Below are positions 3,574 through 58,966 of a DNA stretch of 64,000 nucleotides, one piece after another; the first letter of the stretch is position 1; each line of letters opens with the position of its first letter. Both the position numbers and the translations under genes were made by a program. Origin of the DNA: Chloroflexota bacterium (GTDB taxonomy: Bacteria > Chloroflexota > Anaerolineae > Anaerolineales > UBA4823); NCBI GenBank assembly GCA_029265355.1, contig JAJUJL010000002.1, positions 332,803 through 396,802 of the forward strand, written 5' to 3'. The notes beneath the pieces were generated by a model that saw nothing but the letters and a program-made list of their open reading frames with translations, searched no databases and was not told the DNA's origin.

Positions 3574-4173
3574 ATGTATGCGTTTGTGATCGCGGATAAC
3601 CGTAAGTGCATCGGGTGCTACGCCTGCGTGGCTGCCTGTGTAGAAAGTCACCGGCTCGCAGGATTGCAAGCTTACCCCCGTCTATATATCACCCACACGC
3701 CTGCTGGCACCATGCCAATCCAATGCCGCCACTGCGAAGATGCCATGTGTGCGCTGGTTTGCCCGGTCAACGCGATCACACATTCAGACGGCGGCATCCA
3801 GATCAACGAAGGCTTGTGCATTGGCTGCAAAATGTGCGCCTTAGCTTGCCCATACGGCAATATCCTGCCGGGAGGTACACCGGTACCCGGATTGGAGCTC
3901 AGCCTGGGTTTTTACACTTTTTCCAACTCGCCCAAGGAACCTGACCCGATGTTTTTACGTGAGTTGAGTTACCAGGAGCAACTTTCGCTGTTAGGTTGGA
4001 AGATAGGGCAAAAAACGGTGGCCGTTAAATGCGACCGCTGTTACTTTCGAGAGGGTGGCCCGGCTTGCGTGGCAGCTTGCCCGCATAAAGCGCTGATCCT
4101 GGTGGACGAGTCTTACGACGGTCGCAACCAGATCTTCGAACAAATGAAAGCCGTGGCAGAGCTGGAAGCCTAG
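3574..4173 (+). CDS. hyfA: Hydrogenase-4/FHL 4Fe-4S ferredoxin-type electron-transfer subunit (HyfA/HycB-like)
   Basis: Four Cys clusters: CIGCYACVAAC, CRHCEDAMCALVCP, CIGCKMCALACP, CDRCYF..GGPACVAACP. GGGAGG SD sits 6 nt upstream. First gene of the hyf-like operon. Confidence 0.85.
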   Translation: MYAFVIADNRKCIGCYACVAACVESHRLAGLQAYPRLYITHTPAGTMPIQCRHCEDAMCALVCPVNAITHSDGGIQINEGLCIGCKMCALACPYGNILPGGTPVPGLELSLGFYTFSNSPKEPDPMFLRELSYQEQLSLLGWKIGQKTVAVKCDRCYFREGGPACVAACPHKALILVDESYDGRNQIFEQMKAVAELEA

Positions 4174-4211: not shown

Positions 4212-6242
4212 ATGAGTGCGATCCAGCTATTTCTGCTCTCGGTTGGTTTCTTCGGCGCTGGCGCGCTGGCCGCACTGCTGTTTAGACCCGCCGCCAGCCT
4301 GGCTCGCTGGTTGGCGGGCGCGGCCTGCCTGGCAGGGTCGATCAGCGGGGTGCTGTGTGCGCTGTCGGGAGCTGGTACAGCCCTGAACGGTGTTGCTCCT
4401 CAAACGGTTGCCCTGCTCAGCATTCCTCCCTTTGGAAACCTGGCGATTGCGTTGGACGGATTGAGCCTGCTCATCGTTGCAGTCATCGCCCTGGTGGGGA
4501 TTGCAGCGAGCCTGTTCATGTTAGGCGCAGCGCCTGAGCAGGCTTCTATCGGCTTTCTGACCAACTTGTTCATGGGCGCCATGCTATTGGTTGCCGCGAC
4601 CAGCAACACCTTCTTCTTCCTGGTGTTTTGGGAGCTGATGACGCTGGCTTCCTACTTGCTCGTGATCTGGGAGCCTGAGAAAAGAGAATCAGTTCGGGCT
4701 GGATTCATCTACATGCTGGTTGCGCATGCCGGAGCAGCCCTGCTCATGTTGGCTTTCTTGATCCTGTATCAGAAGAGCGGCTCGTTCGATTTTAACGCTA
4801 TACGCCAGTCTCAACTGGCACCGGCGTTGCGCAGCCTGATCTTTATGTTGGTCTTCATCGGATTTGGTGCGAAGGCGGGTATGGTACCGCTGCATTTCTG
4901 GGCGCCGGGTGCCTACACTGCCGCGCCCAGCCATGTTTCAGCGTTGATGTCGAGCGTGATGAAGAAGACGGCCGTATATGGCCTGCTGCGAGTGAGTGTG
5001 GATTTGCTGGGCGCGCCCTTGTGGTGGTGGGGGGTGATTGTGCTGATCTTTGGCGCCATTTCGACGGTGATAGGCGCTTTCTATGCCTTGCCAGAACGCA
5101 ATCTCAAGCGGCTGCTGGCGTACTCGAGCGTGGAGAACGTGGGCATCATCTTGATGGGCGCTGGGCTGGGCATGACTGGACTGGCCCTGAACCAGCCGGT
5201 GCTCGCCAGCCTGGGGCTGGTAGCGGCGCTGTATCACCTGCTCAATCACGCTTTCTTCAAGTCGCTGCTCTATTTGTGCGCTGGTTCGGTGATCGATCAG
5301 AGCGGAACAATGGATCTGAACCGTATGGGGGGGTTAGGGCGGCGAATGCCGTGGACGGCGCTGACTTTCCTGGTCGGCGCGCTGTCTATCTCAGCCATTC
5401 CTCCTTTCAACGGTTTTGTCAGCGAGTGGTTCACGTACCAGTCTTTCCTGGCTGCTGGGCGGGTGACGAATTTCTCACTCAGGGTAATAGGCCCGCTGAG
5501 CGCGGTGTGCCTGGCGTTGGCTGGCGCGCTGGCCGCCATGGTGTATATCAAAGCCTTTGGTGGGGCATTCAATGGCCCATCGCGCAGCCCGGCGGCAGGC
5601 GCTGCGCACGAGACTGGCAAACTCGCATTGGTCAGCCAAATTTACCTGGCGCTGGGCTGCCTGGTGTCGGGACTTGGCGCGCCATGGGTGGTCCCATGGG
5701 TTGCGGCTATCGCGGCCAACTTTGGTGGAGGACCGGCGGCGGTGGTCTCTGGTGGTTGGACGGTGTTTCCGCTGTCGGCGGGGCAGGCGACGCTCTCGAC
5801 GCCCTTGATTGCCATCCTGTTAGTTGGGTTGCTGAGCGCGCCGCTGCTGATCGTCGCCCTACTGGGCGGACGGCGGGTTGCGGCGCGCAGCGATGTGGAA
5901 CCGTGGAGTTGCGGTTACGGATATCGCTCTGTGATGTCCCTCCCTGCCAGCGGGTTCGACCAACCGGTGAAAGTCACCTTCCAACCGCTGTACCAGGCGC
6001 GACGAATATTGGAAAAGCCTTTCCAGGTGGTGGGCGGCTTCTCGCGCTCTGCGGTGCAATTCATCCTGAGAGCAGAGCCGTTGGTTGAAACGGTGGTGAC
6101 GCGACCGGCGGTGCGGCTGGTAGAAACAGCCGGACAGTGGATCCAGGCGCTGCAAATGGGCGATATTCGCGTTTACTGCCTGTACATCATCATCACCCTG
6201 GCGGTGCTGCTGATCTTGAGCTTCGGAAGGAGCGGATTATGA
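4212..6242 (+). CDS. hyfB: Hydrogenase-4 membrane subunit B (NuoL/antiporter-like, HyfB/HycC-like)
   Basis: 676-aa polytopic protein with antiporter-like motifs (HFWAPGAYTAAPSHVSALMSSVMKKTAVYGLLR; LLAYSSVENVGIILMG). Size and operon position match HyfB. Confidence 0.85.
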   Translation: MSAIQLFLLSVGFFGAGALAALLFRPAASLARWLAGAACLAGSISGVLCALSGAGTALNGVAPQTVALLSIPPFGNLAIALDGLSLLIVAVIALVGIAASLFMLGAAPEQASIGFLTNLFMGAMLLVAATSNTFFFLVFWELMTLASYLLVIWEPEKRESVRAGFIYMLVAHAGAALLMLAFLILYQKSGSFDFNAIRQSQLAPALRSLIFMLVFIGFGAKAGMVPLHFWAPGAYTAAPSHVSALMSSVMKKTAVYGLLRVSVDLLGAPLWWWGVIVLIFGAISTVIGAFYALPERNLKRLLAYSSVENVGIILMGAGLGMTGLALNQPVLASLGLVAALYHLLNHAFFKSLLYLCAGSVIDQSGTMDLNRMGGLGRRMPWTALTFLVGALSISAIPPFNGFVSEWFTYQSFLAAGRVTNFSLRVIGPLSAVCLALAGALAAMVYIKAFGGAFNGPSRSPAAGAAHETGKLALVSQIYLALGCLVSGLGAPWVVPWVAAIAANFGGGPAAVVSGGWTVFPLSAGQATLSTPLIAILLVGLLSAPLLIVALLGGRRVAARSDVEPWSCGYGYRSVMSLPASGFDQPVKVTFQPLYQARRILEKPFQVVGGFSRSAVQFILRAEPLVETVVTRPAVRLVETAGQWIQALQMGDIRVYCLYIIITLAVLLILSFGRSGL

Positions 6243-18049: not shown

Positions 18050-18742
18050 CTAGTTGACTCGATTTCCGTAGAGCGGCTTGAGCGCTTCGCGGACTTCCTT
18101 GAGGCTACCATAGGCGATGGTGTAGCGGTGCCTTGTGCCATTACTGTCAATCTCTACCTGATCGCGATCGTTTGGTTCTTCGGGGTCAGAGCTTTTCAAT
18201 CGCACCTGTTGGATTTGATTGTGCAGAAAATAGAAGTTTTCGCCATGCTCTGCCAGGATCGTGGCTGGTGCCATACCCAGGTAGCGTTGTGAGAAGTGCC
18301 ATCCAGAAGTCGTCATCGCTGCCCACTGTTTGAAAAAACCTTTGCCCTGTTCGCGGGCTTGTTGCCTGGCATCTTTTGCAGCCTCTTGCAGCATCTGGCT
18401 GGTTACCAATGCAAAAATCAGGCGATGGGAGGTGAGCACTACGGCAAAAGATTGGGAGCCAAACAATCCTTTGCGGCGCTGCAAAATGGGTAGCACCTTC
18501 AGCACGACTTCAACCTTGGTGTGATTGGCATTGCCAGGGGTGGATGGAACAGCCTGTGGGGCAGTCTTTTGAGGCGGTGGGGGAGTGACAAGCGGCGCAG
18601 GGCCATGTTGTGTTTGTTGAATGGGAACATCTGCGAATCCGGCCTGTTGCATCTCTATCCGGTGACCACAGTTGCCGCAAAAACGCGCTCCCGAAGCGAG
18701 CTGGTTGCCACAGAAAGTACAGAATCCGGATGTATGCTTCAT
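18050..18742 (-). CDS. Zinc-ribbon protein with Pro-rich linker and PH/GRAM-like C-terminal domain
   Basis: CTFCGNQLASGARFCGNCGH zinc ribbon. The C-terminal part resembles bacterial PH-like domains. The ATG at 18742 has a GGAG 8 nt upstream. The track start at 18775 is GTG. Confidence 0.6.
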   Translation of the reverse strand: MKHTSGFCTFCGNQLASGARFCGNCGHRIEMQQAGFADVPIQQTQHGPAPLVTPPPPQKTAPQAVPSTPGNANHTKVEVVLKVLPILQRRKGLFGSQSFAVVLTSHRLIFALVTSQMLQEAAKDARQQAREQGKGFFKQWAAMTTSGWHFSQRYLGMAPATILAEHGENFYFLHNQIQQVRLKSSDPEEPNDRDQVEIDSNGTRHRYTIAYGSLKEVREALKPLYGNRVN

Positions 18743-18835
18743 TAGTTTACTCCAAGAATCCGATGGACCATTCACCCCCTGTTATCGGATGTCAATGGAT
18801 TAACTGAACAGGCAGTCACCTGATAAAAATGTCGA

Positions 18836-19729: not shown

Positions 19730-19876
19730 AGCGGGTACCGTGTGTCGTTTTTTGGTTCAGAAGATTATTTACCGGCTGGTTGCGATAGCTTAAACATACT
19801 ATAATTTTAATGATGATCTAAAGGAAATGTCTATACAATCTTGTAAGGTTGAGATTGTGCTGGAAAGGAGCAGCCG

Positions 19877-20365
19877 ATGAATTTGATCAGCGTACCCATC
19901 GAAAAGCCCGAAGAGGTCAATTTTATTTTGGGCCAGTCACATTTTATTAAGACTGTAGAAGACTTGCACGAGGCGTTGGTAAGTGCAGCGCCAGGGATCA
20001 AATTCGGATTGGCATTCTGCGAAGCATCGGGAAAATGCCTGGTCCGTTGGAGCGGCAGCGATGCGGAGATGATCGCCCTGGCGCAGAAAAATGCACTGGC
20101 GATCGGCGCAGGTCACAGTTTCATCATTTTCCTGGGCAAAGGTTATTTTCCAATCAATGTGCTCAATGCAGTGAAAGGGGTGCCCGAAGTTTGCAGGGTC
20201 TACTGCGCCACTGCTAACCCTACCCTGGTGCTGGTGGCAGAGACTGAGCAGGGGCGTGGAATCCTGGGGGTGATCGATGGCAGCAGCCCGGCTGGTGTGG
20301 AGGGCGACGAGGATATCGCCTGGCGCAAGAGCTTCTTGCGCAAGATTGGCTACAAGGTCGCCTGA
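19877..20365 (+). CDS. Adenosine-specific-kinase family protein (Adenosine_kin / PAE2307-like)
   Basis: NFILGQSHFIKTVEDLHEALVSAAPGIKFGLAFCEASG...ANPTLVLVAETEQGRGILGVIDG...FLRKIGYK matches this roughly 160-aa family over its full length, from memory. Good SD. Confidence 0.7.
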   Translation: MNLISVPIEKPEEVNFILGQSHFIKTVEDLHEALVSAAPGIKFGLAFCEASGKCLVRWSGSDAEMIALAQKNALAIGAGHSFIIFLGKGYFPINVLNAVKGVPEVCRVYCATANPTLVLVAETEQGRGILGVIDGSSPAGVEGDEDIAWRKSFLRKIGYKVA

Positions 20366-22851: not shown

Positions 22852-23373
22852 TTAAGGATAAAACTGTAGCGCCTCTGCCAACGCCTGCTCAGCCAGGCTG
22901 GCATTGGCTGCCAGCCACACCAACTGCCTGCCGGAGCGGAAGTAGAAATGCTGCTGCCCAAGGCCTTCCAACGCCAGCACTGTACGACCGCCTGCTTGCC
23001 TGGTTTCCAGCGGTTTGAACGGCGAACGCCCCTCGGCAATGCGGTGCTCCATCTTCTTTTGCATGCGGGCAGCCATGAAACCCAGCGGCGACCCTGAAAC
23101 CCATAGAACAGCCTGCTCCTGGCCATAAATCCCCACCGCGCCGCTGGTGATCGCGAAGCTCAACCCATGCAGATGGTTGATTTCCTGCACAGCGGCGCGC
23201 CCGGTGAGCGCCTGAGTGAGCGGCAACCCGGCGACAGACTCTGGCAGCGGCTCGGCGCCAGGATTGGAGACCAGCGAGTGGACGTAAAGCCAGCTGGCAG
23301 CGCTAACCGCAAAAACCAGCCCAGCGATGATAAGGATAAACGCCAGGTAGCGAAGCAGAGCGGCTTTCATCAT
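22852..23373 (-). CDS. Membrane-anchored hypothetical protein
   Basis: N-terminal TM anchor AALLRYLAFILIIAGLVFAVSAASW. ATGA overlap with the stop of the upstream gene. I recognise no family. Confidence 0.55.
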   Translation of the reverse strand: MMKAALLRYLAFILIIAGLVFAVSAASWLYVHSLVSNPGAEPLPESVAGLPLTQALTGRAAVQEINHLHGLSFAITSGAVGIYGQEQAVLWVSGSPLGFMAARMQKKMEHRIAEGRSPFKPLETRQAGGRTVLALEGLGQQHFYFRSGRQLVWLAANASLAEQALAEALQFYP

Positions 23374-24731
23374 CGGGAATTGCCACCTGCTGGAACTGGC
23401 GCTGTGTTCGGGACGACTTCTACTTCCGGGTCGAACATCAACTTCGTCTGGAGACGCAGGTTCCTGAAATAATTGAGAATGGCTGAAAGTTGATAGAAAC
23501 CTGCAAACACCAGTGAAACAAGCAGCAACTCAGAATTTTCCCACAGGGCTTGCCATGCCCAGGGCAGCATCTCAGCTTCAAAGTGGAATTCGGATTGTTG
23601 CAGCACAGTGAACAGAGCTCTAAGGTAGACACCGAATACCACGCTGAGCATGGTTAGAAGCGAGGTTGCCAGCACACTCCTGGTACCGGGCTTTGTTCCA
23701 ACTTTGTCCATGACTTTCATGATCGCGGAAAAGATACCCCAGGAAACCAACACAGCTACAGCATCCTGGAAATAGGCAACTACCGCCCAAACCAGGCTGC
23801 ACACCAGCGCCACGGCGATTCCAGCCAGGATGCCGCGCCCCAGGTTGTGCGGCGCATTCTGGAATTTCTTGCGGTCGGCCTGGGCTTGCGCTTTTAAATT
23901 CTCCCGGCACGCCGAGTAAATCATGAAGGGCATGCCGTTAACCAAGGAGAGCTGTGGAAGCAACAGCCCATGAGAGGCGCACTGCGGGTTTTCGCAGCGT
24001 CCTTCTGGTAGGGGAGAGGTATACCGCGTCACCGCGCAAACAAATTGCCGCAGCCGCTCGAGGGTTTCTTTCGGCGAGCGGCGCGTATCCAGGGGCAGGA
24101 TGATATTGGTATAGGTAGGCGTTATTTCCAGGCCAGCATTCGTGCTGGAACGTTTTCCCAGCAGCGCCCGGATATCCGGATCAGTTTCCAACTGCCGGAG
24201 TACATGCGCCTCATCCACGGGCGGCTGGTGCTTGACAAACACCAGAGCCTGTATTGCCTTGATCGGCAAATGGCCCAGGGTGGCAGATTGGGCTTTTGGA
24301 AAACTGAAGATGCCTGCAAGGCGCCCTTCGATCCAACCTACTGCACGGTGGCGCAAGTGCCAGGGCATACCAGCGCCCGGCAGATAGGTCATACCGCTTT
24401 CCTGGATATACTCCTGCCACCAGACACGATCATTAATGCGTCGCGGCAACGGCTGCGCAGGTTGGCCGCGCTCCGCCTCCTTTCGCTCCGGCTGCAGGAC
24501 GCCATCTACCAGCAGGTGAAAGCTGAAAGCAATCCCGTTGGTGTAGATATTAACTTCGATCAGGTGGCTTTGCAGCCAGAATTCGTGAAACGATCCCCCG
24601 TCATTAAAGAGATAACTGCGATGGACCCGCTCGCCATCCAGCCAGATTTCACGCCACCCAATCCAGGTGTGGCGGAGTTGCAACCGGTGCTGAATTCCAT
24701 CGATCTTAAACACCCACTCCCGTTGCGACAT
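23370..24731 (-). CDS. Hypothetical protein, soluble N-terminal region plus C-terminal 4-TM module
   Basis: 453 aa with an ATG start. TM helices GILAGIAVALVCSLVWAVVAYF, VLVSWGIFSAIMKVM, LATSLLTMLSVVFGVYL and LLLVSLVFAGFYQLSAIL. I recognise no family. Confidence 0.6.
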   Translation of the reverse strand: MSQREWVFKIDGIQHRLQLRHTWIGWREIWLDGERVHRSYLFNDGGSFHEFWLQSHLIEVNIYTNGIAFSFHLLVDGVLQPERKEAERGQPAQPLPRRINDRVWWQEYIQESGMTYLPGAGMPWHLRHRAVGWIEGRLAGIFSFPKAQSATLGHLPIKAIQALVFVKHQPPVDEAHVLRQLETDPDIRALLGKRSSTNAGLEITPTYTNIILPLDTRRSPKETLERLRQFVCAVTRYTSPLPEGRCENPQCASHGLLLPQLSLVNGMPFMIYSACRENLKAQAQADRKKFQNAPHNLGRGILAGIAVALVCSLVWAVVAYFQDAVAVLVSWGIFSAIMKVMDKVGTKPGTRSVLATSLLTMLSVVFGVYLRALFTVLQQSEFHFEAEMLPWAWQALWENSELLLVSLVFAGFYQLSAILNYFRNLRLQTKLMFDPEVEVVPNTAPVPAGGNSR

Positions 24732-24762
24732 AACAGCTCAGTGTCACCAGATCTCTTGTGTA

Positions 24763-24780
24763 CCTTACATTAATGTAAGG
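24763..24780. promoter_or_regulatory. Perfect 18-bp palindrome, candidate operator
   Basis: CCTTACAT-TA-ATGTAAGG lies in the 160-nt divergent region between the 453-aa membrane protein gene and the Flp pilin gene. Confidence 0.3.
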
Positions 24781-24891
24781 ATGATTCTCGATCAAGCAGT
24801 TGAATCGCAGTGCGAATATGGCTATATTATATGCATGATTCGGTTCGCCAGAAATGTCTACCAGGGGTAGGATTTCGTCTGGGAGGCGGCA

Positions 24892-25093: not shown

Positions 25094-26596
25094 TCAAGCA
25101 ATGCGGTCTGGCTGCGACGCCACGTGTTTGCCTGCCAACCGCCCGCTGGTGATGGCCCAGGCGATGTGCAGTCCGTGGCCCCATAAGACCATCCCGCTCA
25201 AACCATTCTGCCCGACGGCATACAGACCAGCTATCGGCTCCCCATTGCGATCCAATGCCTGAAAATTTCGATCGATCACCACACCGCCCTCGGTGGTGGT
25301 GAAGTAGGCCTTGGCAGGGCCAAGCAGCAGCCAGGGACCAGGACCAAGCTGGGGCAGGCTGCCAGTCTTCCGCTCTGTGTTGGCGTGCTCGATGCTCTTC
25401 TGCAGCGCCTGCGCAGGCAAGCCACGCTGGGCTGCGACAGCTTCCAAGGTGCTGGCTTGAAATGCCACGTCTGGGCGCAATCGCAAGTAATCGGCAGCGT
25501 AGGCGTAGGCGATTTTGGGCGCGGTGGAAATGAAGTGCGGCCATGCGGAGTAGCGCTGCACCAGGCGGGCATCCAATAAAATATAGGCAATCTTCCCAGG
25601 TTGGTTGGCGATGGCAATCTCGCGCTCCAGGGGAGTGGTCTCATGGCAAAAGCGCTCGCCGCGGCGATTGACGAGTATGGCGCCATCGTCGAACAAGGCA
25701 TTTTCCGGGTGCTGCCAGGTGACCAGCAGGCGGCGGATCATTGCGCTCAGCATAAAGCCAGGCAGCCGCGGCGCGACGACGCCCATGAGTTTCGCTAGTG
25801 GTCCGTGCGCTGGCAGAAGCTGTTGGAAGGTTCGTCCTGGCGGAGCGACAAAGCGAATCTCCGGTCCGTAGGTGATATCCATGTTGGTCAACTGCGCTCC
25901 AGCGGACTCCGCCAGCAAGTGACCTGCGCCGGTAGAGTGGGGGTTGATCCCTTCGATCTCGCGGAAGCGCTCCCCTTTGAAGCGAGCAATGATTTCGGGC
26001 GAATTCGTATAGTCGCCGGCGGCCAGGATGACACCCTTGCGCGCCCGAAACACCTGTTTATTCCCATTTAGGCGCGCTGCCACGCCTGAGACTCGTCCCC
26101 CTTCCGCCAACAATTCGACCACTTCAGCGTTGGTAAGCACCTGCCCGCCGAGGCGCGCCAGCCGCGCCTGCAGGGCTGCAATGTAAGCCTTGGCGCCCGG
26201 CACCACGTTGTGCATGCGCGGTTTGCGGTTGGGAGGTTCAGGGTTGGGTCCCTGAAAGGACAACCCCATGCCTGCCAACCAATCCAGCGTATCGGCGCCG
26301 AGTGAGAGAAACCAGCGGCGCATCTCTGCGTTATTGCGCGCTTCGATTTCCGGGGGAGCGAATTTCCCCGCATCCTCAGCATGTTCGTCGAGTGAATCTT
26401 GCACACCGGCTCTGCGCTGCCAGGCGGTGCGGTTGGCAGTATAGGAACCAACGGCGATGCCAGTGGTGCCGCCCAAATCGGGCAGCTTCTCCAGCACCAG
26501 CACGCTAGCGCCGTGCTCGGCGGCGCTCACGCCGGCTGCCAGCCCGCTGCCACCCCCACCGACGACGAGTACATCGAAATCGTTATTCATGGTCAT
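25094..26596 (-). CDS. FAD-dependent oxidoreductase (fumarate reductase/KstD-like flavoprotein family)
   Basis: Dinucleotide fold DVLVVGGGGSGLAAGVSAAEHGASVLVLEK. C-terminal GLYAVGQN flavin motif. Starts 2 nt after the upstream lipoprotein gene. Confidence 0.85.
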   Translation of the reverse strand: MTMNNDFDVLVVGGGGSGLAAGVSAAEHGASVLVLEKLPDLGGTTGIAVGSYTANRTAWQRRAGVQDSLDEHAEDAGKFAPPEIEARNNAEMRRWFLSLGADTLDWLAGMGLSFQGPNPEPPNRKPRMHNVVPGAKAYIAALQARLARLGGQVLTNAEVVELLAEGGRVSGVAARLNGNKQVFRARKGVILAAGDYTNSPEIIARFKGERFREIEGINPHSTGAGHLLAESAGAQLTNMDITYGPEIRFVAPPGRTFQQLLPAHGPLAKLMGVVAPRLPGFMLSAMIRRLLVTWQHPENALFDDGAILVNRRGERFCHETTPLEREIAIANQPGKIAYILLDARLVQRYSAWPHFISTAPKIAYAYAADYLRLRPDVAFQASTLEAVAAQRGLPAQALQKSIEHANTERKTGSLPQLGPGPWLLLGPAKAYFTTTEGGVVIDRNFQALDRNGEPIAGLYAVGQNGLSGMVLWGHGLHIAWAITSGRLAGKHVASQPDRIA

Positions 26597-26598
26597 GG

Positions 26599-27294
26599 TC
26601 AGGGTTTAGGCTCAGCATCCAGGCCGCCGAACCAATCCAGTTGGATATCTCCATTGATGGCATTGAGGCGCACGGAACGCTGAGCCTCGCCGCTGCCACA
26701 GCTCACCAGCCATTCGATGCCACCTTGCAGGTTGACATCCAGGCTGTAATAGAACGTGCCGTCATCGGCTGTGCTGCAGAAAGGCTGGACCAGTGCAGCC
26801 GCCTGGGTGCTGTCCATCCAGTCTTGCGCATAGAGGGGTTTCCCAGGGCCAGAGCTGTCGCGTGGCATGGCGAACGCAATCTGCCCATCCCTGATCTGGA
26901 GCGCCAGGTATTCCAGGCGGCGGCTGGGAGAGTGGAAATTCATCTGCCAGGTTGGCGCCGTACCGTCGCGATTACCGCCTTCCAGCGTCTCCAGGTGAGT
27001 CAACTGAGCATCGGACTTCCATTCTTTTTGGGCGTACTGCAGGGCGATGCGGTAGGCCGCCTCGGCGCTGAAAGGGCCGGTGGGAGGAGCCATTTCTGTG
27101 GTGGGGGGTGGGTAATTCGCCTGGGTGGGCGTGACTGCCGATGGGTCAGCCTCGTTGATGGCTACCGGCGCTTGTTCGACCCCGGCAGGCGGGTAGGGGT
27201 CGACCAGCGGCGGTGCGCAGGCGCTCAGAAACAAGAGTATAGTGATGATGATGCAGTTAGCAGAGAGCCATCTTGTTTTCAATTCGACTTCCAT
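26599..27294 (-). CDS. Putative lipoprotein, unknown function
   Basis: Signal and lipobox IIITILLFLSAC. ATG start. First gene downstream of repeat copy A. Confidence 0.65.
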   Translation of the reverse strand: MEVELKTRWLSANCIIITILLFLSACAPPLVDPYPPAGVEQAPVAINEADPSAVTPTQANYPPPTTEMAPPTGPFSAEAAYRIALQYAQKEWKSDAQLTHLETLEGGNRDGTAPTWQMNFHSPSRRLEYLALQIRDGQIAFAMPRDSSGPGKPLYAQDWMDSTQAAALVQPFCSTADDGTFYYSLDVNLQGGIEWLVSCGSGEAQRSVRLNAINGDIQLDWFGGLDAEPKP

Positions 27295-27318
27295 AGCCCA
27301 AAAACCTGTCTGGTGATA

Positions 27319-27480
27319 CTTTTTTGATCTTAGCTTTCATTGCGATATGTTTCCATGACGCTGGAAGCGTCATCTGGTCTGGGAATGACAGATATGTCAT
27401 GAGTAGACCGGCGTACTGTGCTGGTCGTGGCAATCTCTTATCAGATCATTTTGCGTGGCCCACATCGTGCGAGCAGCTTA
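27319..27480 (-). repeat. Structured repeat element, copy A (candidate 5'-leader/cis-regulatory RNA; sense strand is minus)
   Basis: About 89% identical (17 substitutions over a 153-nt gap-free core aligned by eye) to the reverse complement of 46911..47075. Contains the 8-bp hairpin ATGACGCT/AGCGTCAT (27355..27373). Its sense-strand 3' end lies 24 nt upstream of the ATG at 27294. Confidence 0.8.
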
Positions 27481-28218
27481 TCATACTTTGGTCCCGCATT
27501 CCTGGCAGAACTTCGCCCCAGCTTCCAATTTGGCACCACACCCGCTGCAGTGCGCTTCCTTTTGAATTTTTGCGCCGCACTCCGGGCAGAATTTGACCTT
27601 TTTTGCCAGCGGCGCGCCGCAGCCTGGGCAGGTAGCGCGTGCCCCTTCTCGCCAGCTCTCATCCTTGAGCATTTCGCGGTCTTCTTCAGCCATCTTCGAA
27701 TGCGCCCAGATCTCTTCAACGGTGCGGCTGGATTGGGCGGCGGCCATCTCGACGCCTAGATCAGGGGCACATTCCTTGCACAAGCCGCGCCGCTCGTTCC
27801 AGCACGATTTCTGACACACCCAGCTAGAGCAGCGCGGGCATTGCGCAAATTGTGGTCGTAGCTCCTGCGAGGCGGCCAGGAAGGCTTCATCGTGAGCTTT
27901 CTCCCAGGCGGCGCTGTGCACCTGGCTGCTCAGCTCGGCAGCTTTGCCAAACAAGCCACCAAACAGGCTACTTGCGGCTTCGATGCCCTTGTTGACTGTG
28001 CCGGTCAGGGATGGTCTGAATCGGCTGCGAAACCCATTTCCGCATCGGTCGCAGAAGAATTCGTACTGAAAGCCCTGATCAGTGCTCAGGTCGTGGTAGT
28101 TTTTGGTGAACTCTATTGGCTCAACCATGGTCTTCTCATCGGCCTCCGTCCCTCCAGGGGATGGAAATGTTATGTTGAAATCAGTATAGAACCATCCCAA
28201 GCTGGAGTCAACTAACAT
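27481..28218 (-). CDS. Multi-zinc-ribbon protein
   Basis: Several CxxC pairs: CDRCGNGF, CPRCSSWVC...CKEC, CPGCGAPLAKKVKFCPECG, CSGCGAKLEAGAKFCQECG. The alternative start at 28128 (MVEPIEF) is possible. Confidence 0.7.
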   Translation of the reverse strand: MLVDSSLGWFYTDFNITFPSPGGTEADEKTMVEPIEFTKNYHDLSTDQGFQYEFFCDRCGNGFRSRFRPSLTGTVNKGIEAASSLFGGLFGKAAELSSQVHSAAWEKAHDEAFLAASQELRPQFAQCPRCSSWVCQKSCWNERRGLCKECAPDLGVEMAAAQSSRTVEEIWAHSKMAEEDREMLKDESWREGARATCPGCGAPLAKKVKFCPECGAKIQKEAHCSGCGAKLEAGAKFCQECGTKV

Positions 28219-46743: not shown

Positions 46744-46910
46744 TTTCCAATAGGTAGTATGATTAAGCCAACTGGTCACCCTGGCCGCAAAATGACGACC
46801 AGGATCATTAAAGCTGGTCTTACTGCGCAGACCACGCTAAATGGTATCATCCTGAGTGAAGCGGAACACCTACGTGACGCGGTCACTGCGCACTCTCAGA
46901 GAGACACCTC

Positions 46911-47075
46911 ATAAATGCTGTTTGCACGACATGGGCGATGTAAAATGACCTGCTAAGAGATTGCCACAACCAGCACAGAACGCTGGTCTACTCACGACAT
47001 ATCTGTCATTCCCAGAACGGATGACGCTTCCAGCGTCATGGAAACATCTCGCAATGACAGCTAAGATCAAAAAAG
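46911..47075 (+). repeat. Structured repeat element, copy B (candidate 5'-leader/cis-regulatory RNA; sense strand is plus)
   Basis: Reverse-complement homolog of 27319..27480. Hairpin ATGACGCT/AGCGTCAT at 47021..47039. Helix ACCAGC/GCTGGT at 46969..46987. Long-range CTGTCATT (47003..47010) / AATGACAG (47053..47060). Ends 10 nt before the ATG at 47086. Confidence 0.8.
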
Positions 47076-47085
47076 GATTTCGGGC

Positions 47086-53935: not shown

Positions 53936-56900
53936 TTACTTTCTCATCTGCAGCGGCAGGTACACATACGCAATGTGCGGTGTTTTCACTTCCAAAGGCG
54001 CGGATAGCGTGCTGTAGTTGCCCGAATTATCATACGCCAACACGGCCAGGTAAACTTGCTCGGTCCAGGCAGGCACAGGCAGCGTGGCGCAGTTGACGTT
54101 GCCCACCTCGAAGATGCCCAAATCGTAAACGCCGGATTGGCTGCCCAGGTAAACCGTATAACCGGTCACATCCACCTCGCTGTTCAAGGTCCAACAGGCT
54201 TGCAACGAGCCATCGTACTCAGCTTGTAAGCCCACTGGCGGTGATGGGGGAGTATCATTGATGACAGACACGGTTTGGGCAAAGTACGCCGTGACCGGGA
54301 GATTCTTCAAGTCATCGATCTCTGCATAAATATAATATTTGCCGCTCTGAACACCCACCGGCTGCCACAGGTGGCTGCCCTGTGCCGGGTCGATACCGCT
54401 GGCGATGAGCGTACCATCAGCACCTTGCCCATCCGTATCATAGTACAGAGAGAGCGTGGTGTCCTTGTCGCTGTCCAGGGCATTCCATTCGATCAGATAG
54501 CCGGTTGGCGCTTGCATACCCTCGGCGGACAAGGCTGATAGAGCGGATGGCGCAATTTCGGGCGGAAGATTTCGCCCATAAGACTCAAAACGATAGTTCT
54601 CACCACCCTTGAGGTTATCGATGATCGCTTCCCACACGCCGGGCAGCGGTTTTTGAATGAAGAATGTGCTGGTGGTTTTGGTTTCGGTGTATGCCAGGCC
54701 AGGATACAACGGCGAAGGCTCGACCAAGGTGCCTTCGGGGTCGCGCAGCAGAAGCAGCGGCTCGCCGTTTTCCCAGCTCATGCCCGCCAGGAGCAGGTCG
54801 GTGTGATCCACTGTGAAGGTGATCACGTGCCCGGCCTCGGGTGGATGTCCAATGGCGTCATAGTAAGCCTGGATGAGCGGCTGATCTGCCAGCCGGTATC
54901 GGTCAAGGCTGCTGCCGTAGTCCAGGTTGCCGTTCACATCCAGGAAGAAGGCGTAGGATGCCAGGGTGATCTTTTTGAAGAGGGCATTGATGGTGATATC
55001 CACGGCGCCCTTGAATCCATACACTGGGCTGGTGCAGTAGCGGTCGGTGCAGAATTCGCCCACTTGAGCGCTGACGGAGCCAAAAGTGAAGTCCGCTGGC
55101 GGCAAGTCGATGCCGGCAAAGCTGCCCAGCGCGCCTTTCTTGAAGCCCAGCGTCACCTGCGCCGAGCCGGTGAAATGGAACTCGCCGCCCGAGCGCCAGA
55201 CATGCAGGCTGGCCGTCCCGCTCATGGCATACGGCAAGTAGTTCACGTTCACACTGCCCACCAAACCGTTGGACTGGCTGAGCACCAGTGAGGCTTCGGC
55301 CGCGTCGAAGATCAGCACCTGCACCTCGCCGCTGACCCCCACCTCGTAAGGCTGGTTGAGCTTGACCCAGACCGAGGGGGAACCGGAGACGACCGGCCCC
55401 AGGGGCGGAACTTCGAGCTGCGACTCGATCGTGCCGGTGATCTGCACCCGCACTTCCGGGCGCAACGTGACCCGTCCTTCCATACCTGTCAGCGCCATGC
55501 CGCTCTGCCCGATGGGGATGCCAGGTTCGATGGTTCCACCCATCAATATGTAGTGCAATCCATCCTGGCTCAGCTCGAACTCGGCGTACAGCGCGCCGGT
55601 GTAGGTGGTACCAGGCGTCTTCTTGCTCTGAATGTTTGGCAAGCTGAAATCAGCCCGCCCGCTCAGTGTGTAATTCCCGTCCGGCTCCAACGCCAATGTC
55701 ACCGAGGCGCCGGCAACGCTAAATTTTCCGGCAGTGCCCGGCACAGCCATCTCAGGCAAGCTGACCTTGATCTCGCCGCCTCCCACTTTTTCCAGGCCGT
55801 TACGCGAGAGCACGATGTCGCTCACCGAGCCTTCTGCGCCCAGGTCCAGGCTGGCAGGCAGGGCGATGCTGGCTTTGGAGATGGTGATCTTGCCGCCTGT
55901 GGTGGGTGCATAGCTGAAGACGGCTTCTTCGACTTGGAAGGTGACGCCAGCTATCTCAAATTCCAGGTCACCCACACCTAGGCCACCCTCGATGACGCCG
56001 CTGTGGTGGAGTTTGAAGTCGATCATGGCGCTGTTGAGCACACCTTCCAGCGGGTACGCCAGGGCGCGCACGCGTCCCTTGGCCCAGCCTGCGATAGCAT
56101 TGAACTGGAAATCCTGCACCGGCGTGGCCTCATCCACATTCAAATCGCCCAAGGTGGCAAGCGTCGAGAGTGCGTTGGCTGGCATATCCGCCAGCCCGGA
56201 GGATGGATCCAGGTTGAACGGTCCGGCAAAGAGCGGCGCTGAGCGCCCGCCATCGATCAGCAGGTACACAATGCTGTCGGATGAACCTTCGATGATCGAG
56301 CTGGCATAATCCAGCAGAGCTGAACCCTGCAGCAGAGCGATATACATGCTGCCGGATGGCCCAAAGCGCACATTGCCGGAGGCTTCCCAAAGGTCGGTCG
56401 AGATCTGGGTGAATGTGTTGGCGTACACGACCAGGTTGCCGATGGTACGGCTGTTGGCAGGCGGCGGCGCGGCGGTCGGCAACAAGCCCGGCGGTGTGGG
56501 GGTGGGGCCCTGCCCGGGTGCAAAGGTGGGTTGAAGCGTAGCCGTAGGCGTGATGGTGGGCGTAGCAGTCGGCGCGCCGGGCGGTGTGCTGGTGGGCTGC
56601 AGGGTGTCGATAATAAATGACTGGCTGATGCTCTCTGCCAGGGTGGTACCTGAATAGGTGCGCGCTCGCACGCGCCAGTAGTATGTACCCGGAGCGTAGG
56701 TATCGCGGTATTCCCGGTAAGGGGTGTAGGTGGTGTAATCTGTGGTCACCGTGTCATAGGATGTGGAAAAGGTTGGGCTGGTGCTGACATACAGTGTGTA
56801 GTGATCAGCCCCCGGAAACTGCGACCAATGGAAGGTGGGCGCGCTTCCCATCGAAGCGCCGTCTGCTGGCAGGAGCAGATGCAGAGGTTGTTGCTTGGTA

Positions 56901-58966
56901 AAAGGCTGCGTAGCGCTGACGGCGATCTGTGTGCCAACGTTGTCGCGGCCGGCTACTTTCCACCAGTAGAACGTACCGTTGGGATAGCTATCGACCGAGG
57001 AGACTTCTGGGGTGTATTGGTTGTATTCGGTGGTGACCGTGTCGTAGCTGGTAGAAAAATCCGGCGATTTGCTGACCCACAGCGTGTAATGGTCAACGCC
57101 GATCAAGGGATCCCAACGGAAGGTTGGATCCAGGGTGAGGTAAGCGCCTGAGCCGGGAGCGAGCAAGGTTTCGCTGATGGCTTTGGTAAAGGTGCGCAGC
57201 TCGCTTTCTGCCAGGGTGGTGCCGACGGCGTTGCGGGCGCGCACCCGCCAGTGATACGTACCCGCGCGATAGGTATCCACCTCACTTAAATTGGTTGTGA
57301 AGGCGGTGGCGTCGGTGGTGATCGTCGAGTAGGCGCTCATATCGCTCTTGAGCAAGTCGATGGTGTAGTGATCGGCACCGGGGTGGGGCATCCACGAAAA
57401 TTGAGGGTCCTGGAACAGTGTTGCGCCTTCATGGGGAGTGTTAAGTAGCACGGATGCTTGCTTGGTCAGCGAAAAAACATTGCTGGTGGAAAGCAGTGTT
57501 CCCACAGAATTGCGAGCTTCCACTTTCCAGTAGTAGGTGCCGGTAGGGTAGCTGTCGATGCCTGCCACGGCGGGAGTGTAGCTGGTGTAGGAGGTGGTTT
57601 CCGAGGCATAGGTACTGGCGAAGTCGGGCGTTTTACTGACGCGCACCGTGTAACGCGCGGCGCCGACCACCGGCGTCCAGCGGAAGGTAGGATCGTTGGA
57701 AACAACCTCGCCGTTGCCCGGAGTCAATAACTCTGGAACGGTATCAAAAGCCGCCGGCGGCGCGAGCACGACCACGCTGCGCGCCGGAGAAGGTTGCCCG
57801 GGGTGCTGTCGCCCATCCATGCTGCGCACGCGCCAGTAATAAGTGCCCGGGGAAAGCAGTGTAAAAGGTGTGTAGACCGTATTGTAGGTATCGAAGGTTT
57901 GCAGGTTGGTGGTGAAAGCCGGGTCCTTCGCCAACTCCAACCGGTAGTAAGAGGCGCCTGAAGCTGAGTTCCAAATAAATGTTGGCGTGCTGCGGCTGGC
58001 GCCTTCCGGCGGGTTTGCCAGGGTGGGCGCCGGCAGCTTACGGATGAAGGTGCGCGCTGGGCTGGGTGTGCCTGGATTATTATCAGCGTCCATGGGCACG
58101 ACACGCCAGTAATAGGTGGCTTCGGCGAGGGAAACGGCGGGAATATAGGAGAGGTTACCCGTGGCCTGGGAATGGACCAGTGGGTCGAAATCAGGTTCCA
58201 GGCTGATCTCTACATGGTAGTAAACCGCGCCTGGGCTGCGTTGCCAGGCGAAGCGCGGCTCGGTCACCGTTTCGCCATTCAGAGGCGTAGAGAGGAGTGG
58301 GGCAGGGAGGTGCTTGGTGAAAGTGAACACTTCGCTGGGATTGCCAGGGTGATCGCCAGAGTCGTAAGGCACCACCCGCCAGGCATACACGTTGTTGGGG
58401 AAGCTGTCGGTGGGTGTAATCGCCAGGTTATAGGTTTTGTGCGTATAGTCTATGTTCGTGAAAGTGGGATCTGTGGAGATCTGTAATAGATAATAGGTTG
58501 CGCCTTCGCTCTGACTCCATTCAAAAGATGGGTTGGTGATGGCGGCGTAGCGCGGCGGGGAGATCAGCGTTGGCGCGGGGATGTACTTGGTGAAGTATAC
58601 TCGTGAGCTCCAATCGCCGGGTGTGTCAGTGGCATCATAAGCGCGCACGCGCCAGTAGAGCGGTGCGTTGGGCAAGGAGGTGGCGCTGTCGGGCGTGACC
58701 GTCAGGTAATCGCTTTTCCCGCTCCAGTAAACGGTCGTTGGACTGGATTGAGGACCGACCTCGATCTCGTAATACGCTGCGCCAGGTGAGGGCATCCAGG
58801 AGAAAGTCGGGGTGATGATCGCATCATCGTTCTTGGGCAGCAGCGGGGTGGGCGCTGCCAGCAAAGCCCAGCCGATAGCAAAAAAGCCGGCCAACAAGGC
58901 TGCGGCGATCACAAATGGAATCAGCAGCAGCATGACGCGCCAACGGGGAAGATCAATGCGTATCAT
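53936..58966 (-). CDS. Giant (1676 aa) membrane-anchored/secreted protein: 8 tandem Ig/FN3-like modules, Pro/Thr linker, large beta-rich C-terminal region
   Basis: GGGAGGG SD. N-terminal TM anchor. Repeats span aa 42-787. PT-rich linker (56450..56605). PPC-like and FN3-like segments lie near the C-terminus. The protein ends YVYLPLQMRK. Confidence 0.85.
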   Translation of the reverse strand: MIRIDLPRWRVMLLLIPFVIAAALLAGFFAIGWALLAAPTPLLPKNDDAIITPTFSWMPSPGAAYYEIEVGPQSSPTTVYWSGKSDYLTVTPDSATSLPNAPLYWRVRAYDATDTPGDWSSRVYFTKYIPAPTLISPPRYAAITNPSFEWSQSEGATYYLLQISTDPTFTNIDYTHKTYNLAITPTDSFPNNVYAWRVVPYDSGDHPGNPSEVFTFTKHLPAPLLSTPLNGETVTEPRFAWQRSPGAVYYHVEISLEPDFDPLVHSQATGNLSYIPAVSLAEATYYWRVVPMDADNNPGTPSPARTFIRKLPAPTLANPPEGASRSTPTFIWNSASGASYYRLELAKDPAFTTNLQTFDTYNTVYTPFTLLSPGTYYWRVRSMDGRQHPGQPSPARSVVVLAPPAAFDTVPELLTPGNGEVVSNDPTFRWTPVVGAARYTVRVSKTPDFASTYASETTSYTSYTPAVAGIDSYPTGTYYWKVEARNSVGTLLSTSNVFSLTKQASVLLNTPHEGATLFQDPQFSWMPHPGADHYTIDLLKSDMSAYSTITTDATAFTTNLSEVDTYRAGTYHWRVRARNAVGTTLAESELRTFTKAISETLLAPGSGAYLTLDPTFRWDPLIGVDHYTLWVSKSPDFSTSYDTVTTEYNQYTPEVSSVDSYPNGTFYWWKVAGRDNVGTQIAVSATQPFTKQQPLHLLLPADGASMGSAPTFHWSQFPGADHYTLYVSTSPTFSTSYDTVTTDYTTYTPYREYRDTYAPGTYYWRVRARTYSGTTLAESISQSFIIDTLQPTSTPPGAPTATPTITPTATLQPTFAPGQGPTPTPPGLLPTAAPPPANSRTIGNLVVYANTFTQISTDLWEASGNVRFGPSGSMYIALLQGSALLDYASSIIEGSSDSIVYLLIDGGRSAPLFAGPFNLDPSSGLADMPANALSTLATLGDLNVDEATPVQDFQFNAIAGWAKGRVRALAYPLEGVLNSAMIDFKLHHSGVIEGGLGVGDLEFEIAGVTFQVEEAVFSYAPTTGGKITISKASIALPASLDLGAEGSVSDIVLSRNGLEKVGGGEIKVSLPEMAVPGTAGKFSVAGASVTLALEPDGNYTLSGRADFSLPNIQSKKTPGTTYTGALYAEFELSQDGLHYILMGGTIEPGIPIGQSGMALTGMEGRVTLRPEVRVQITGTIESQLEVPPLGPVVSGSPSVWVKLNQPYEVGVSGEVQVLIFDAAEASLVLSQSNGLVGSVNVNYLPYAMSGTASLHVWRSGGEFHFTGSAQVTLGFKKGALGSFAGIDLPPADFTFGSVSAQVGEFCTDRYCTSPVYGFKGAVDITINALFKKITLASYAFFLDVNGNLDYGSSLDRYRLADQPLIQAYYDAIGHPPEAGHVITFTVDHTDLLLAGMSWENGEPLLLLRDPEGTLVEPSPLYPGLAYTETKTTSTFFIQKPLPGVWEAIIDNLKGGENYRFESYGRNLPPEIAPSALSALSAEGMQAPTGYLIEWNALDSDKDTTLSLYYDTDGQGADGTLIASGIDPAQGSHLWQPVGVQSGKYYIYAEIDDLKNLPVTAYFAQTVSVINDTPPSPPVGLQAEYDGSLQACWTLNSEVDVTGYTVYLGSQSGVYDLGIFEVGNVNCATLPVPAWTEQVYLAVLAYDNSGNYSTLSAPLEVKTPHIAYVYLPLQMRK
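56606..58843 (-). repeat. Intragenic tandem repeat: eight diverged modules of about 91-97 codons
   Basis: Each module has the pattern L-x-P-x-x-G...P-x-F-x-W...G-A-x-x-Y...Y-T-P...G-T-Y-Y-W-R-V...F-T-K. Module boundaries counted at aa 42, 134, 225, 316, 413, 508, 602, 698 and 787. Confidence 0.8.

Follow-up and report, generated by a model that had tools for sequence, protein, structure and literature searches.

A probable young dispersed repeat, in long and short forms, upstream of unrelated genes in a Chloroflexota lineage

Small noncoding intergenic repeats have been described in Neisseria (Correia/NEMIS elements) and in enterobacteria and Yersinia (ERIC/IRU and YPAL/RU-2 elements). To judge by their behavior, Correia, ERIC, and YPAL elements appear to be the closest analogues of the element that we describe here from a 64,000-nt stretch of a Chloroflexota bacterium (GenBank assembly GCA_029265355.1, contig JAJUJL010000002.1, positions 332,803 to 396,802; hereafter, the window). 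The element occurs twice in the window, as a 162-nt sequence ahead of two unrelated genes (copies A and B, at loci A and B; Table 1), and had originally been predicted to be either a shared leader RNA or a promoter-carrying miniature repeat. Correia elements come in two sizes, 155 bp and 105 bp, of which the longer has an additional internal segment of 50 bp (PMC2229807). These size classes parallel the 162-nt and 102-nt forms found here, and Correia elements are likewise small (~100 to 160 bp), noncoding, and often located near gene starts; in addition, they are co-transcribed with neighboring genes and carry promoter-like sites. However, the 26-bp terminal inverted repeats, the TA target duplication, and the hundreds of copies known for Correia elements were not found here, and no sequence similarity is seen. 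The internal Correia segment holds an IHF site, for which we found no counterpart in the present element. ERIC/IRU and YPAL/RU-2 resemble it as intergenic repeats of ~127 to 168 bp that fold into imperfect hairpins, and they are transcribed with their flanking genes, with orientation-dependent effects on mRNA stability. YPAL, in particular, lacks TA ends, contains internal inverted repeats, is not A+T-rich, and was recognized via filled and empty sites (PMC2229807). In contrast to the present element, the ERIC and YPAL families belong to another phylum and have another sequence, and the copy number here is apparently low.

Two further categories of known repeats are relevant. Repetitive extragenic palindromic sequences (REPs) are 20- to 40-bp units with an unpaired GTAG or CGTC tag, which have a high copy number and for the most part lie downstream of genes (PMC3733652). 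What the element has in common with REPs, REPINs, and the hairpins of IS200/IS605 is a 60-nt segment of short perfect palindromes with similar feet and no terminal inverted repeats, present or absent with an identical junction in two contexts; however, neither a tag nor a high copy number nor a Y1 transposase was seen here. Membership among the CGTC- or GTAG-tagged REPs was rejected, as the element has no unpaired tag, is present in 2 copies in 64 kb, and is located upstream of genes in both cases. The other category, putative mobile promoters (PMPs), was reportedly introduced by Matus-Garcia, Nijveen, and van Passel in 2012. PMPs are ≥80% identical to each other over ≥50 nt and precede nonhomologous genes of one genome, and their families are mostly pairs with ~92% identity, most of them without an Rfam match and with an unknown mechanism of mobilization (PMC3575422). 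Copies A and B fall within this operational definition, with 89% identity over 162 nt and distances of 21 nt and 7 nt to nonparalogous genes. The likeness lies in a conserved noncoding sequence upstream of nonhomologous genes. PMPs are, however, a descriptive category and not a mechanism, and the promoter here is putative, with a weak consensus match. Moreover, the present element has both a long and a short form, and its sites are filled in some relatives and empty in others. We consider it to be probably a young, lineage-restricted, noncoding dispersed intergenic repeat, that is, a small non-autonomous mobile or recombining element of the kind of miniature inverted-repeat transposable elements (MITEs), Correia elements, or PMPs, which would range within a narrow Chloroflexota (Anaerolineae-like) lineage.

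A repeat search of the window aligned the two copies over 162 nt without gaps, with 144 identities (89%), and blastn inside the window returned the same pair (88.9% over 162 nt; E = 1.8e-57). The copies differ by 18 substitutions, 11 of which are transitions, and by zero indels. The alignment first read by eye (153 nt, 17 substitutions, ~89%) is a slightly shorter version of this one; the gaps of 24 nt and 10 nt then given to the ATGs at 27294 and 47086 were right for its end points and shrink to 21 nt and 7 nt once the alignment is extended. Each copy faces its downstream gene, so the common orientation that had been noted is borne out. The total in the window remains at 2 copies, with no third one found by blastn, nhmmer, or mismatch-tolerant pattern search.

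The surroundings of the two copies are different. Copy A begins 3 nt past the stop codon of a zinc-ribbon gene (27481-28218, - strand) and is followed by a lipoprotein gene and then by a FAD_binding_2 oxidoreductase gene. Copy B lies 173 nt beyond a GGDEF gene, its final bases overlapped by a Shine-Dalgarno-like AAGGA, and precedes a gene of the F420H2_quin_red family; further downstream are a lipoprotein-like open reading frame (ORF) and a NAD_binding_10/DUF2867 protein. The FAD_binding_2, F420H2_quin_red, and NAD_binding_10 plus DUF2867 domains agree with the original description of these genes, but the two "lipoproteins" turn out not to be homologous to each other, so similarity between the loci is confined to noncoding DNA. 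The downstream genes of the two copies are nonparalogous also by their different Pfam content, and similarity stops at the element. A functional link between oxidoreductase and lipoprotein, which had been proposed from these neighborhoods, is weak, given that the lipoproteins are unrelated and that a third locus, described below, involves an adenosine-kinase-like gene.

Judging from homologues of the downstream proteins, the window belongs to Chloroflexota and is close to Anaerolineae-type metagenome-assembled genomes; exact searches for the proteins of the window itself gave no record. The nearest distinct relative comes from Logan sample ERR14790932 (contigs L005 and L009) and is syntenic at loci A and B, with flanking genes of ~76 to 83% nucleotide identity. 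Very close relatives were drawn from members of the same 90% protein clusters: L136 and L135, from sample SRR12451724, are >97% identical to the window, and L134, from sample SRR27730030, has flanking genes that are 95% identical, with third codon positions 10% different.

Both loci lack the element in the relative from ERR14790932. The spacer between the GGDEF and F420H2_quin_red genes at locus B measures 108 nt in L005 versus 342 nt in the window, and similarity to the window picks up again at AAGGATTTCGGG, directly 5' of the start codon. At locus A, the spacer from the zinc-ribbon gene to the lipoprotein gene is 6 nt in L009 versus 186 nt in the window. Other relatives also lack the element, namely, L006 to L008 at locus B and L011 to L013 at locus A, with spacers that are 12 nt long or unrelated. 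The opposite is observed at locus C, where L009 carries a short-form copy (ACGCTGGTCT followed at the junction by TGCGATGACAGCAAAGATTAAAAAAG) directly 5' of the ribosome-binding site of an Adenosine_kin gene and the window has an empty site. This copy matches the 3' 25-mer of the element at 22 of 25 bases and contains, collinear with it, an exact ACGCTGGTCT; as a chance control, 0 of 100 shuffles of the 64-kb window gave any match at ≤3 mismatches. Each of the three loci thus has the element in one lineage and an empty site in another, and in this the element agrees with a criterion for MITEs, namely, dispersed copies whose sites are filled or empty among relatives. At every locus, the element has the same orientation toward the gene, and its A-rich 3' end is located at or within ~35 nt of the ribosome-binding site. 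The conserved 3' tail, which reads GCAAAGATTAAAAAAG in the locus-C copy of L009, adjoins the ribosome-binding site at loci B and C.

These comparisons also bear on the position of the copies relative to transcription units. The original prediction had both copies ahead of an operon start, which for copy A probably does not apply: only 6 to 12 nt separate the zinc-ribbon and lipoprotein genes in relatives, and, as read from this gene order, copy A is probably intercistronic and splits a gene pair that is tightly packed in relatives. The orthologous lipoprotein start codon at locus A may be a TTG 12 nt farther downstream. For copy B, the spacer behind the GGDEF gene opens with the motif AGGTAGTATGATTAA, and five genomes share its generalized form, AGGTAGTAT(C/G)ATTAA, ahead of the F420H2_quin_red-family gene, the other spacer sequence being unalignable among them. 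This motif may be a -10-type promoter element or an operator, and if it is a promoter, copy B would be transcribed within a leader of ~320 nt.

Among close relatives, the element is variably present in two forms, a short form of 102 nt and a long form of 162 nt. The core of 102 nt is made up of ~29 nt of variable 5' tail, an imperfect palindrome centered on a hairpin that we call H1, and an A-rich 3' tail ending in AAGATCAAAAAAG, and the long form additionally contains an optional 60-nt segment with hairpins H2 and H3. At locus B of L134, the element is present and exactly these 60 nt are missing. The resulting junction, between GCTGGTCT and TGCAAC, is the same as in the locus-C copy of L009; the host sequence is identical in both, and the base beside the junction, T in both short forms, is C in all long forms. 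Sample SRR12451724 has the long form at locus B (L136), and at locus A, contig L135 begins 30 nt before the end of the element, with the last 30 nt visible. Two Logan contigs end inside the element, L135 (1-30) at 30 nt from its 3' end and L009 (6504-6556) at 52 nt into its copy. Such ends resemble repeat-induced breaks of the assembly graph and hint at further copies in those genomes.

Copies A and B differ at 4 of 60 positions in the segment and at 14 of 102 in the core. A younger age of the segment was considered and rejected, since the difference in divergence is not significant (Fisher P = 0.20). The segment may have been either inserted into the core or lost from it. Compared with L134, the window has 5 differences in the 102 nt of the core and 10 in the 173 nt of the neighboring spacer, so the element evolves like the surrounding intergenic DNA. 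No independent copy of the segment was found in the window or in 73 kb of relatives, nor in GTDB representatives or metagenome contigs searched with H3-based patterns.

The optional segment invites a more elaborate account, which we regard as quite unlikely. Here, the 102-nt core would be a mobile leader that targets ribosome-binding sites in a fixed orientation, and the 60-nt segment with its two hairpins would be a nested mobile unit that enters a single core site (GGTCT^TGCAA), perhaps as single-stranded DNA (ssDNA) handled by a tyrosine transposase. If true, this would be a two-level miniature-element system that rewires 5' leaders in Anaerolineae-like bacteria, with a 60-nt unit among the smallest known. 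As ssDNA, the segment has a strong predicted fold (z = -3.8), in which the two hairpins share ATGAC...GTCAT feet; the distance to the left end of the segment is 4 to 6 nt for one foot, and that to the right end is 10 nt for the other.

The same features could point to a function of the antisense strand, either as a small antisense RNA or in the form of ssDNA hairpins recognized by a tyrosine transposase of the IS200/IS605 or RAYT type. Consistent with this, the segment has a hairpin near each end with like feet, no terminal inverted repeats of its own, and the strong ssDNA fold just given, and the RNAalifold consensus is better for the antisense strand (-40.6 versus -27.1 kcal/mol for sense), with all 5 one-sided stem changes remaining G.U. 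The sample is, however, far too small, and the apparent antisense preference from G.U-compatible changes disappears when a strand-symmetric helix set is used: of 41 pairs, copy A retains 40 on the sense and 39 on the antisense strand, and copy B retains 36 on either strand, with 5 of 41 broken. In addition, the antisense strand of the element alone folds with weak z-scores of -1.6 and -0.9, scans gave no antisense promoter or terminator, and a domain search between 18 and 52 kb of the window found no TnpA or RAYT gene. A functional antisense strand is therefore, in our view, very unlikely.

A leader RNA, whether a riboswitch, an attenuator, or an RNA thermometer, would act in cis from the sense strand and control the downstream redox genes. 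The element resembles such RNAs in its sense 5'-leader position and in its predicted multi-hairpin fold, which comprises a 5' hairpin, the closing helices UGAUCU/AGAUCA and AUUGC/GCAAU, and hairpins H1 (ACCAGC/GCUGGU), H2 (GACA/UGUC), and H3 (AUGACGCU/AGCGUCAU). H1 belongs to the core and is kept in the short forms, H2 extends in copy A to ATGACA/TGTCAT (27385-27400), and H3 has an 8-bp stem and a 3-nt loop without an unpaired tag. At the DNA level, both copies contain the internal inverted blocks TGATCT..ATTGC and GCAAT..AGATCA. Taken alone, the sense strand of the element folds moderately better than shuffles (z = -2.5 and -2.0), and two of the downstream units encode oxidoreductases of the flavin or deazaflavin type. 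However, the fold signal vanishes when the flanks are included (z = -0.7 and -0.5). RNAalifold found 0 compensatory base changes on either strand, although with so few sequences its power is low. Substitutions fall equally on paired (9 in 82) and unpaired (9 in 80) positions, and the stem-breaking changes in copy B include H1 and the H2 extension. The hairpin core had been called invariant, which is statistically unremarkable, since the longest identical run of 28 nt has P = 0.45 under random placement of the 18 substitutions. In these models, copy A looks like a near-intact palindromic element and copy B like a decaying one, a pattern expected of a repeat that is free of structural constraint.

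The comparison with known RNAs points in the same direction. Rfam 15 returned zero matches at gathering thresholds over the whole window, and only chance eukaryotic matches for the two copies at E values up to 10; ARAGORN detected no tRNA or tmRNA. A terminator scan found 0 terminator-like sites in or beside the element at both loci, and no partner that could pair with the ribosome-binding site (an anti-Shine-Dalgarno helix) was seen on reading the sequence, leaving no expression platform. Conservation at orthologous loci is also lacking: the orthologous leaders in L005, L009, L006, L008, L011, and L013 are without the element, the leader in L134 lacks the hairpin core, and the third locus involves an unrelated kinase-like gene. 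The riboswitch or attenuator-like leader RNA of the original prediction is unsupported, the comparison with relatives being decisive. A sense leader RNA is strongly disfavoured, and we would give it little chance.

Could the element instead encode a small protein? Candidates are sense TTG ORFs of 58 and 47 amino acids (aa) or antisense ORFs, and such a reading is suggested by look-alike ORFs on both strands and by one antisense frame that is open across the whole element in both copies. This is the only one of the six frames that is open in both copies; every other frame has stops. The earlier argument against coding holds, as this frame has 1 synonymous and 13 nonsynonymous codon differences. 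Its peptide has zero homologues among 5.8 billion protein clusters, and the sense peptide gives only spurious translated eukaryotic tandem-repeat matches among 1.84 billion representatives. The 60-nt deletion in L134, in turn, takes out the middle of both ORFs. On present evidence, we reject a small protein, whose probability we regard as close to nil; the element is noncoding.

Another possibility is a regulatory cassette kept by selection, in which the H1 to H3 palindromes, with ATGAC...GTCAT half-sites in H2 and H3, would serve as operators for a DNA-binding regulator, or the 3' end as an outward promoter; by spreading, such an adaptive mobile promoter or operator would bring unrelated operons under a common control. 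Copy B contains ATGAC/GTCAT 5 times versus 0.27 times expected per 162 nt of the window, and within the window, ATGAC-N-GTCAT palindromes are found only inside the element. A cassette would also suit the single orientation that the element has at the three loci and its proximity to the start codon, and the concept of a mobile promoter is documented (PMC3575422). A consensus scan at both loci, however, found no promoter inside the element. The best outward promoter-like site at its 3' end, TGGAAA-17-TAAGAT, was read by eye with 8 of 12 matches and lies below the scan threshold; it exists only in the long form, with its -35 part inside the optional segment. That palindrome-bearing segment is dispensable, being absent from the promoter region of L134 and from the L009 copy, copy B has the stem-breaking changes in H1 and in the H2 extension, and no regulator gene is adjacent. 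We therefore regard a selected cassette as unlikely, if less so than the other alternatives. Of the promoter-carrying miniature repeat in the original prediction, the miniature repeat agrees with the presence/absence pattern and the constant orientation, but no convincing promoter was found in the element. As an observation in its own right, the sole scan-detected promoter-like site near copy A, CTGCCA-17-TATGAT (27480-27508, - strand), overlaps the last codons and the stop of the zinc-ribbon gene; a transcript from it would begin at the first bases of the element, and its TATGAT is missing in L009.

Under the preferred reading of a dispersed repeat, copies would have entered, or have been kept in, the short stretch 5' of ribosome-binding sites, pointing toward the gene, and would be transcribed, within a 5' leader at locus B and within an intercistronic spacer at locus A. 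The enzyme that mobilizes the element in trans would be encoded at another place in the genome. If the downstream genes are affected at all, whether via mRNA stability or translation, via an outward promoter, or via proteins that bind to the ATGAC palindromes, this would be a by-product, with no conserved ligand-sensing function behind it.

Several points weigh against this reading. The evidence for "dispersed" rests on a few genomes. Searches beyond them returned no further copy: in the GTDB representative genomes, the 20-mer GACGCTTCCAGCGTCATGGA had 4 matches in unrelated phyla, none extending beyond ~20 to 27 nt, as expected by chance; viral contigs and metagenome contigs (JGI/ENA) contained no copy when queried with the pseudo-protein of the open frame; a DNA scan of metagenomes with TGAMAGCWAAGATYAAAAAAG gave at least 120 A-rich chance matches and, among the matches listed, none beyond 26 nt, so that genuine copies of the short form may have escaped it; and blastn found no match in plasmids and phages. 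No transposase or integrase domain was detected between 18 and 52 kb of the window, which covers 64 kb of a 420-kb contig. The classic MITE hallmarks are ambiguous. The element has no convincing terminal inverted repeats, only an imperfect pairing of 10 to 12 nt, GCTGTTTGCA/TGCAACGACAGC (GCTGT..TTGCA / TGCAA..ACAGC), that is limited to the locus-B lineage and not seen in copy A. Likewise, no convincing target-site duplication was found, a possible unit being flanked by TAA at both ends in copy A only, and the 3' junction is ambiguous, since (A/T)GAT is present in the empty sites too, about equally far from the ribosome-binding site. With three loci only, the common orientation (chance 0.25) and the proximity to ribosome-binding sites are not statistically secure. 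Given the sense-strand z-scores of the element alone (-2.5 and -2.0), the predicted fold may still reflect a structural role as RNA or ssDNA. Finally, loss in the relatives instead of gain in the window lineage would need precise deletions at several loci and is formally still admissible.

Some further observations concern the surroundings of the element (Table 1). The FAD_binding_2 oxidoreductase gene (25094-26596) is intact in L011, L012, and L135 and reduced to short remnants in L009 (2391-2852), so the "lipoprotein plus oxidoreductase" unit is not conserved. Gene order at locus B is variable: two more distant relatives (L006, 3083-5792; L008, 2148-4843) have a Rieske/cytochrome b/EB_dh cluster immediately ahead of the F420H2_quin_red gene, in L006 between this gene and the GGDEF gene. 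The 173-nt spacer ahead of copy B holds a perfect palindrome, GTGACgcgGTCAC (46874-46886), and a 51-aa ATG ORF (46759-46914); its interpretation as a degenerate second copy of the element was rejected, as 14 of 300 shuffles attained its local alignment score, which is thus not significant. A stretch of ~1.5 kb (23370-24879) with a 453-aa ORF (23370-24731, - strand) is absent at the syntenic position in L009 and L011 and is therefore a lineage-specific insertion. The ORF was considered as a transposase and discarded, having no Pfam, NCBIfam, or PDB match. Two zinc-ribbon-domain proteins of 241 and 245 aa, encoded 9 kb apart on the same strand (18050-18775 and 27481-28218), are possible paralogues. 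Elsewhere in the window, three diverged direct copies of a 75-nt unit (56630-57556; 60 to 73% identity) lie within a 1676-aa ORF (53936-58966) and presumably represent internal protein repeats.

Table 1. Coordinates of the element, its parts, and adjoining spacers and sites (window numbering unless a contig is named)
Feature	Position	Strand	Remarks
Copy A, long form, 162 nt	27316..27477	-	repeat search and blastn
Copy B, long form, 162 nt	46917..47078	+	repeat search and blastn
Optional 60-nt segment, copy A	27345..27404	-	4/60 differences from the copy B segment
Optional 60-nt segment, copy B, ACTCACGACATATCTGTCATTCCCAGAACGGATGACGCTTCCAGCGTCATGGAAACATCT	46990..47049	+	bounded by TCT on both sides; contains H2 and H3
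Hairpin H1, copy B, ACCAGC-acagaac-GCTGGT	46969..46987	+	copy A counterpart 27407-27425, one A.C mismatch
Hairpin H2, copy B, GACA-tatc-TGTC	46996..47007	+	copy A counterpart 27387-27398
Hairpin H3, copy B, perfect palindrome ATGACGCT-tcc-AGCGTCAT	47021..47039	+	copy A counterpart 27355-27373
Conserved 3' tail AGCTAAGATCAAAAAAG	47059..47075	+	copy A counterpart 27319-27335
Spacer, copy A to ATG at 27294	27295..27315	-	specific to locus A, outside the shared repeat
Spacer, GGDEF gene to copy B, 173 nt	46744..46916	+	common to L134 (10 differences); unalignable with L005
AGGTAGTAT(C/G)ATTAA motif	window 46752-46766; L005 ~3908-3922; L006 ~5963-5977; L008 ~5107-5121; L134		
Empty site of locus C, upstream of Adenosine_kin gene 19877-20365	19840..19876	+	window without element; L009 filled

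Overall, the findings fit a small dispersed or mobile intergenic repeat and not a riboswitch or attenuator, which removes a false riboswitch candidate. More generally, a structured sequence of 160 nt in two leaders of one genome is no evidence for a ligand-sensing RNA unless it is conserved at orthologous loci. Another consequence of such repeats is that metagenome assemblies can be interrupted precisely where genes start. The long and short forms provide natural pairs, with and without the hairpins, in front of the same gene, which are usable to measure the effect of an inserted structured leader on expression. If confirmed on whole genomes, this would be a first description of a Correia- or ERIC-like family of small repeats in uncultured Chloroflexota.

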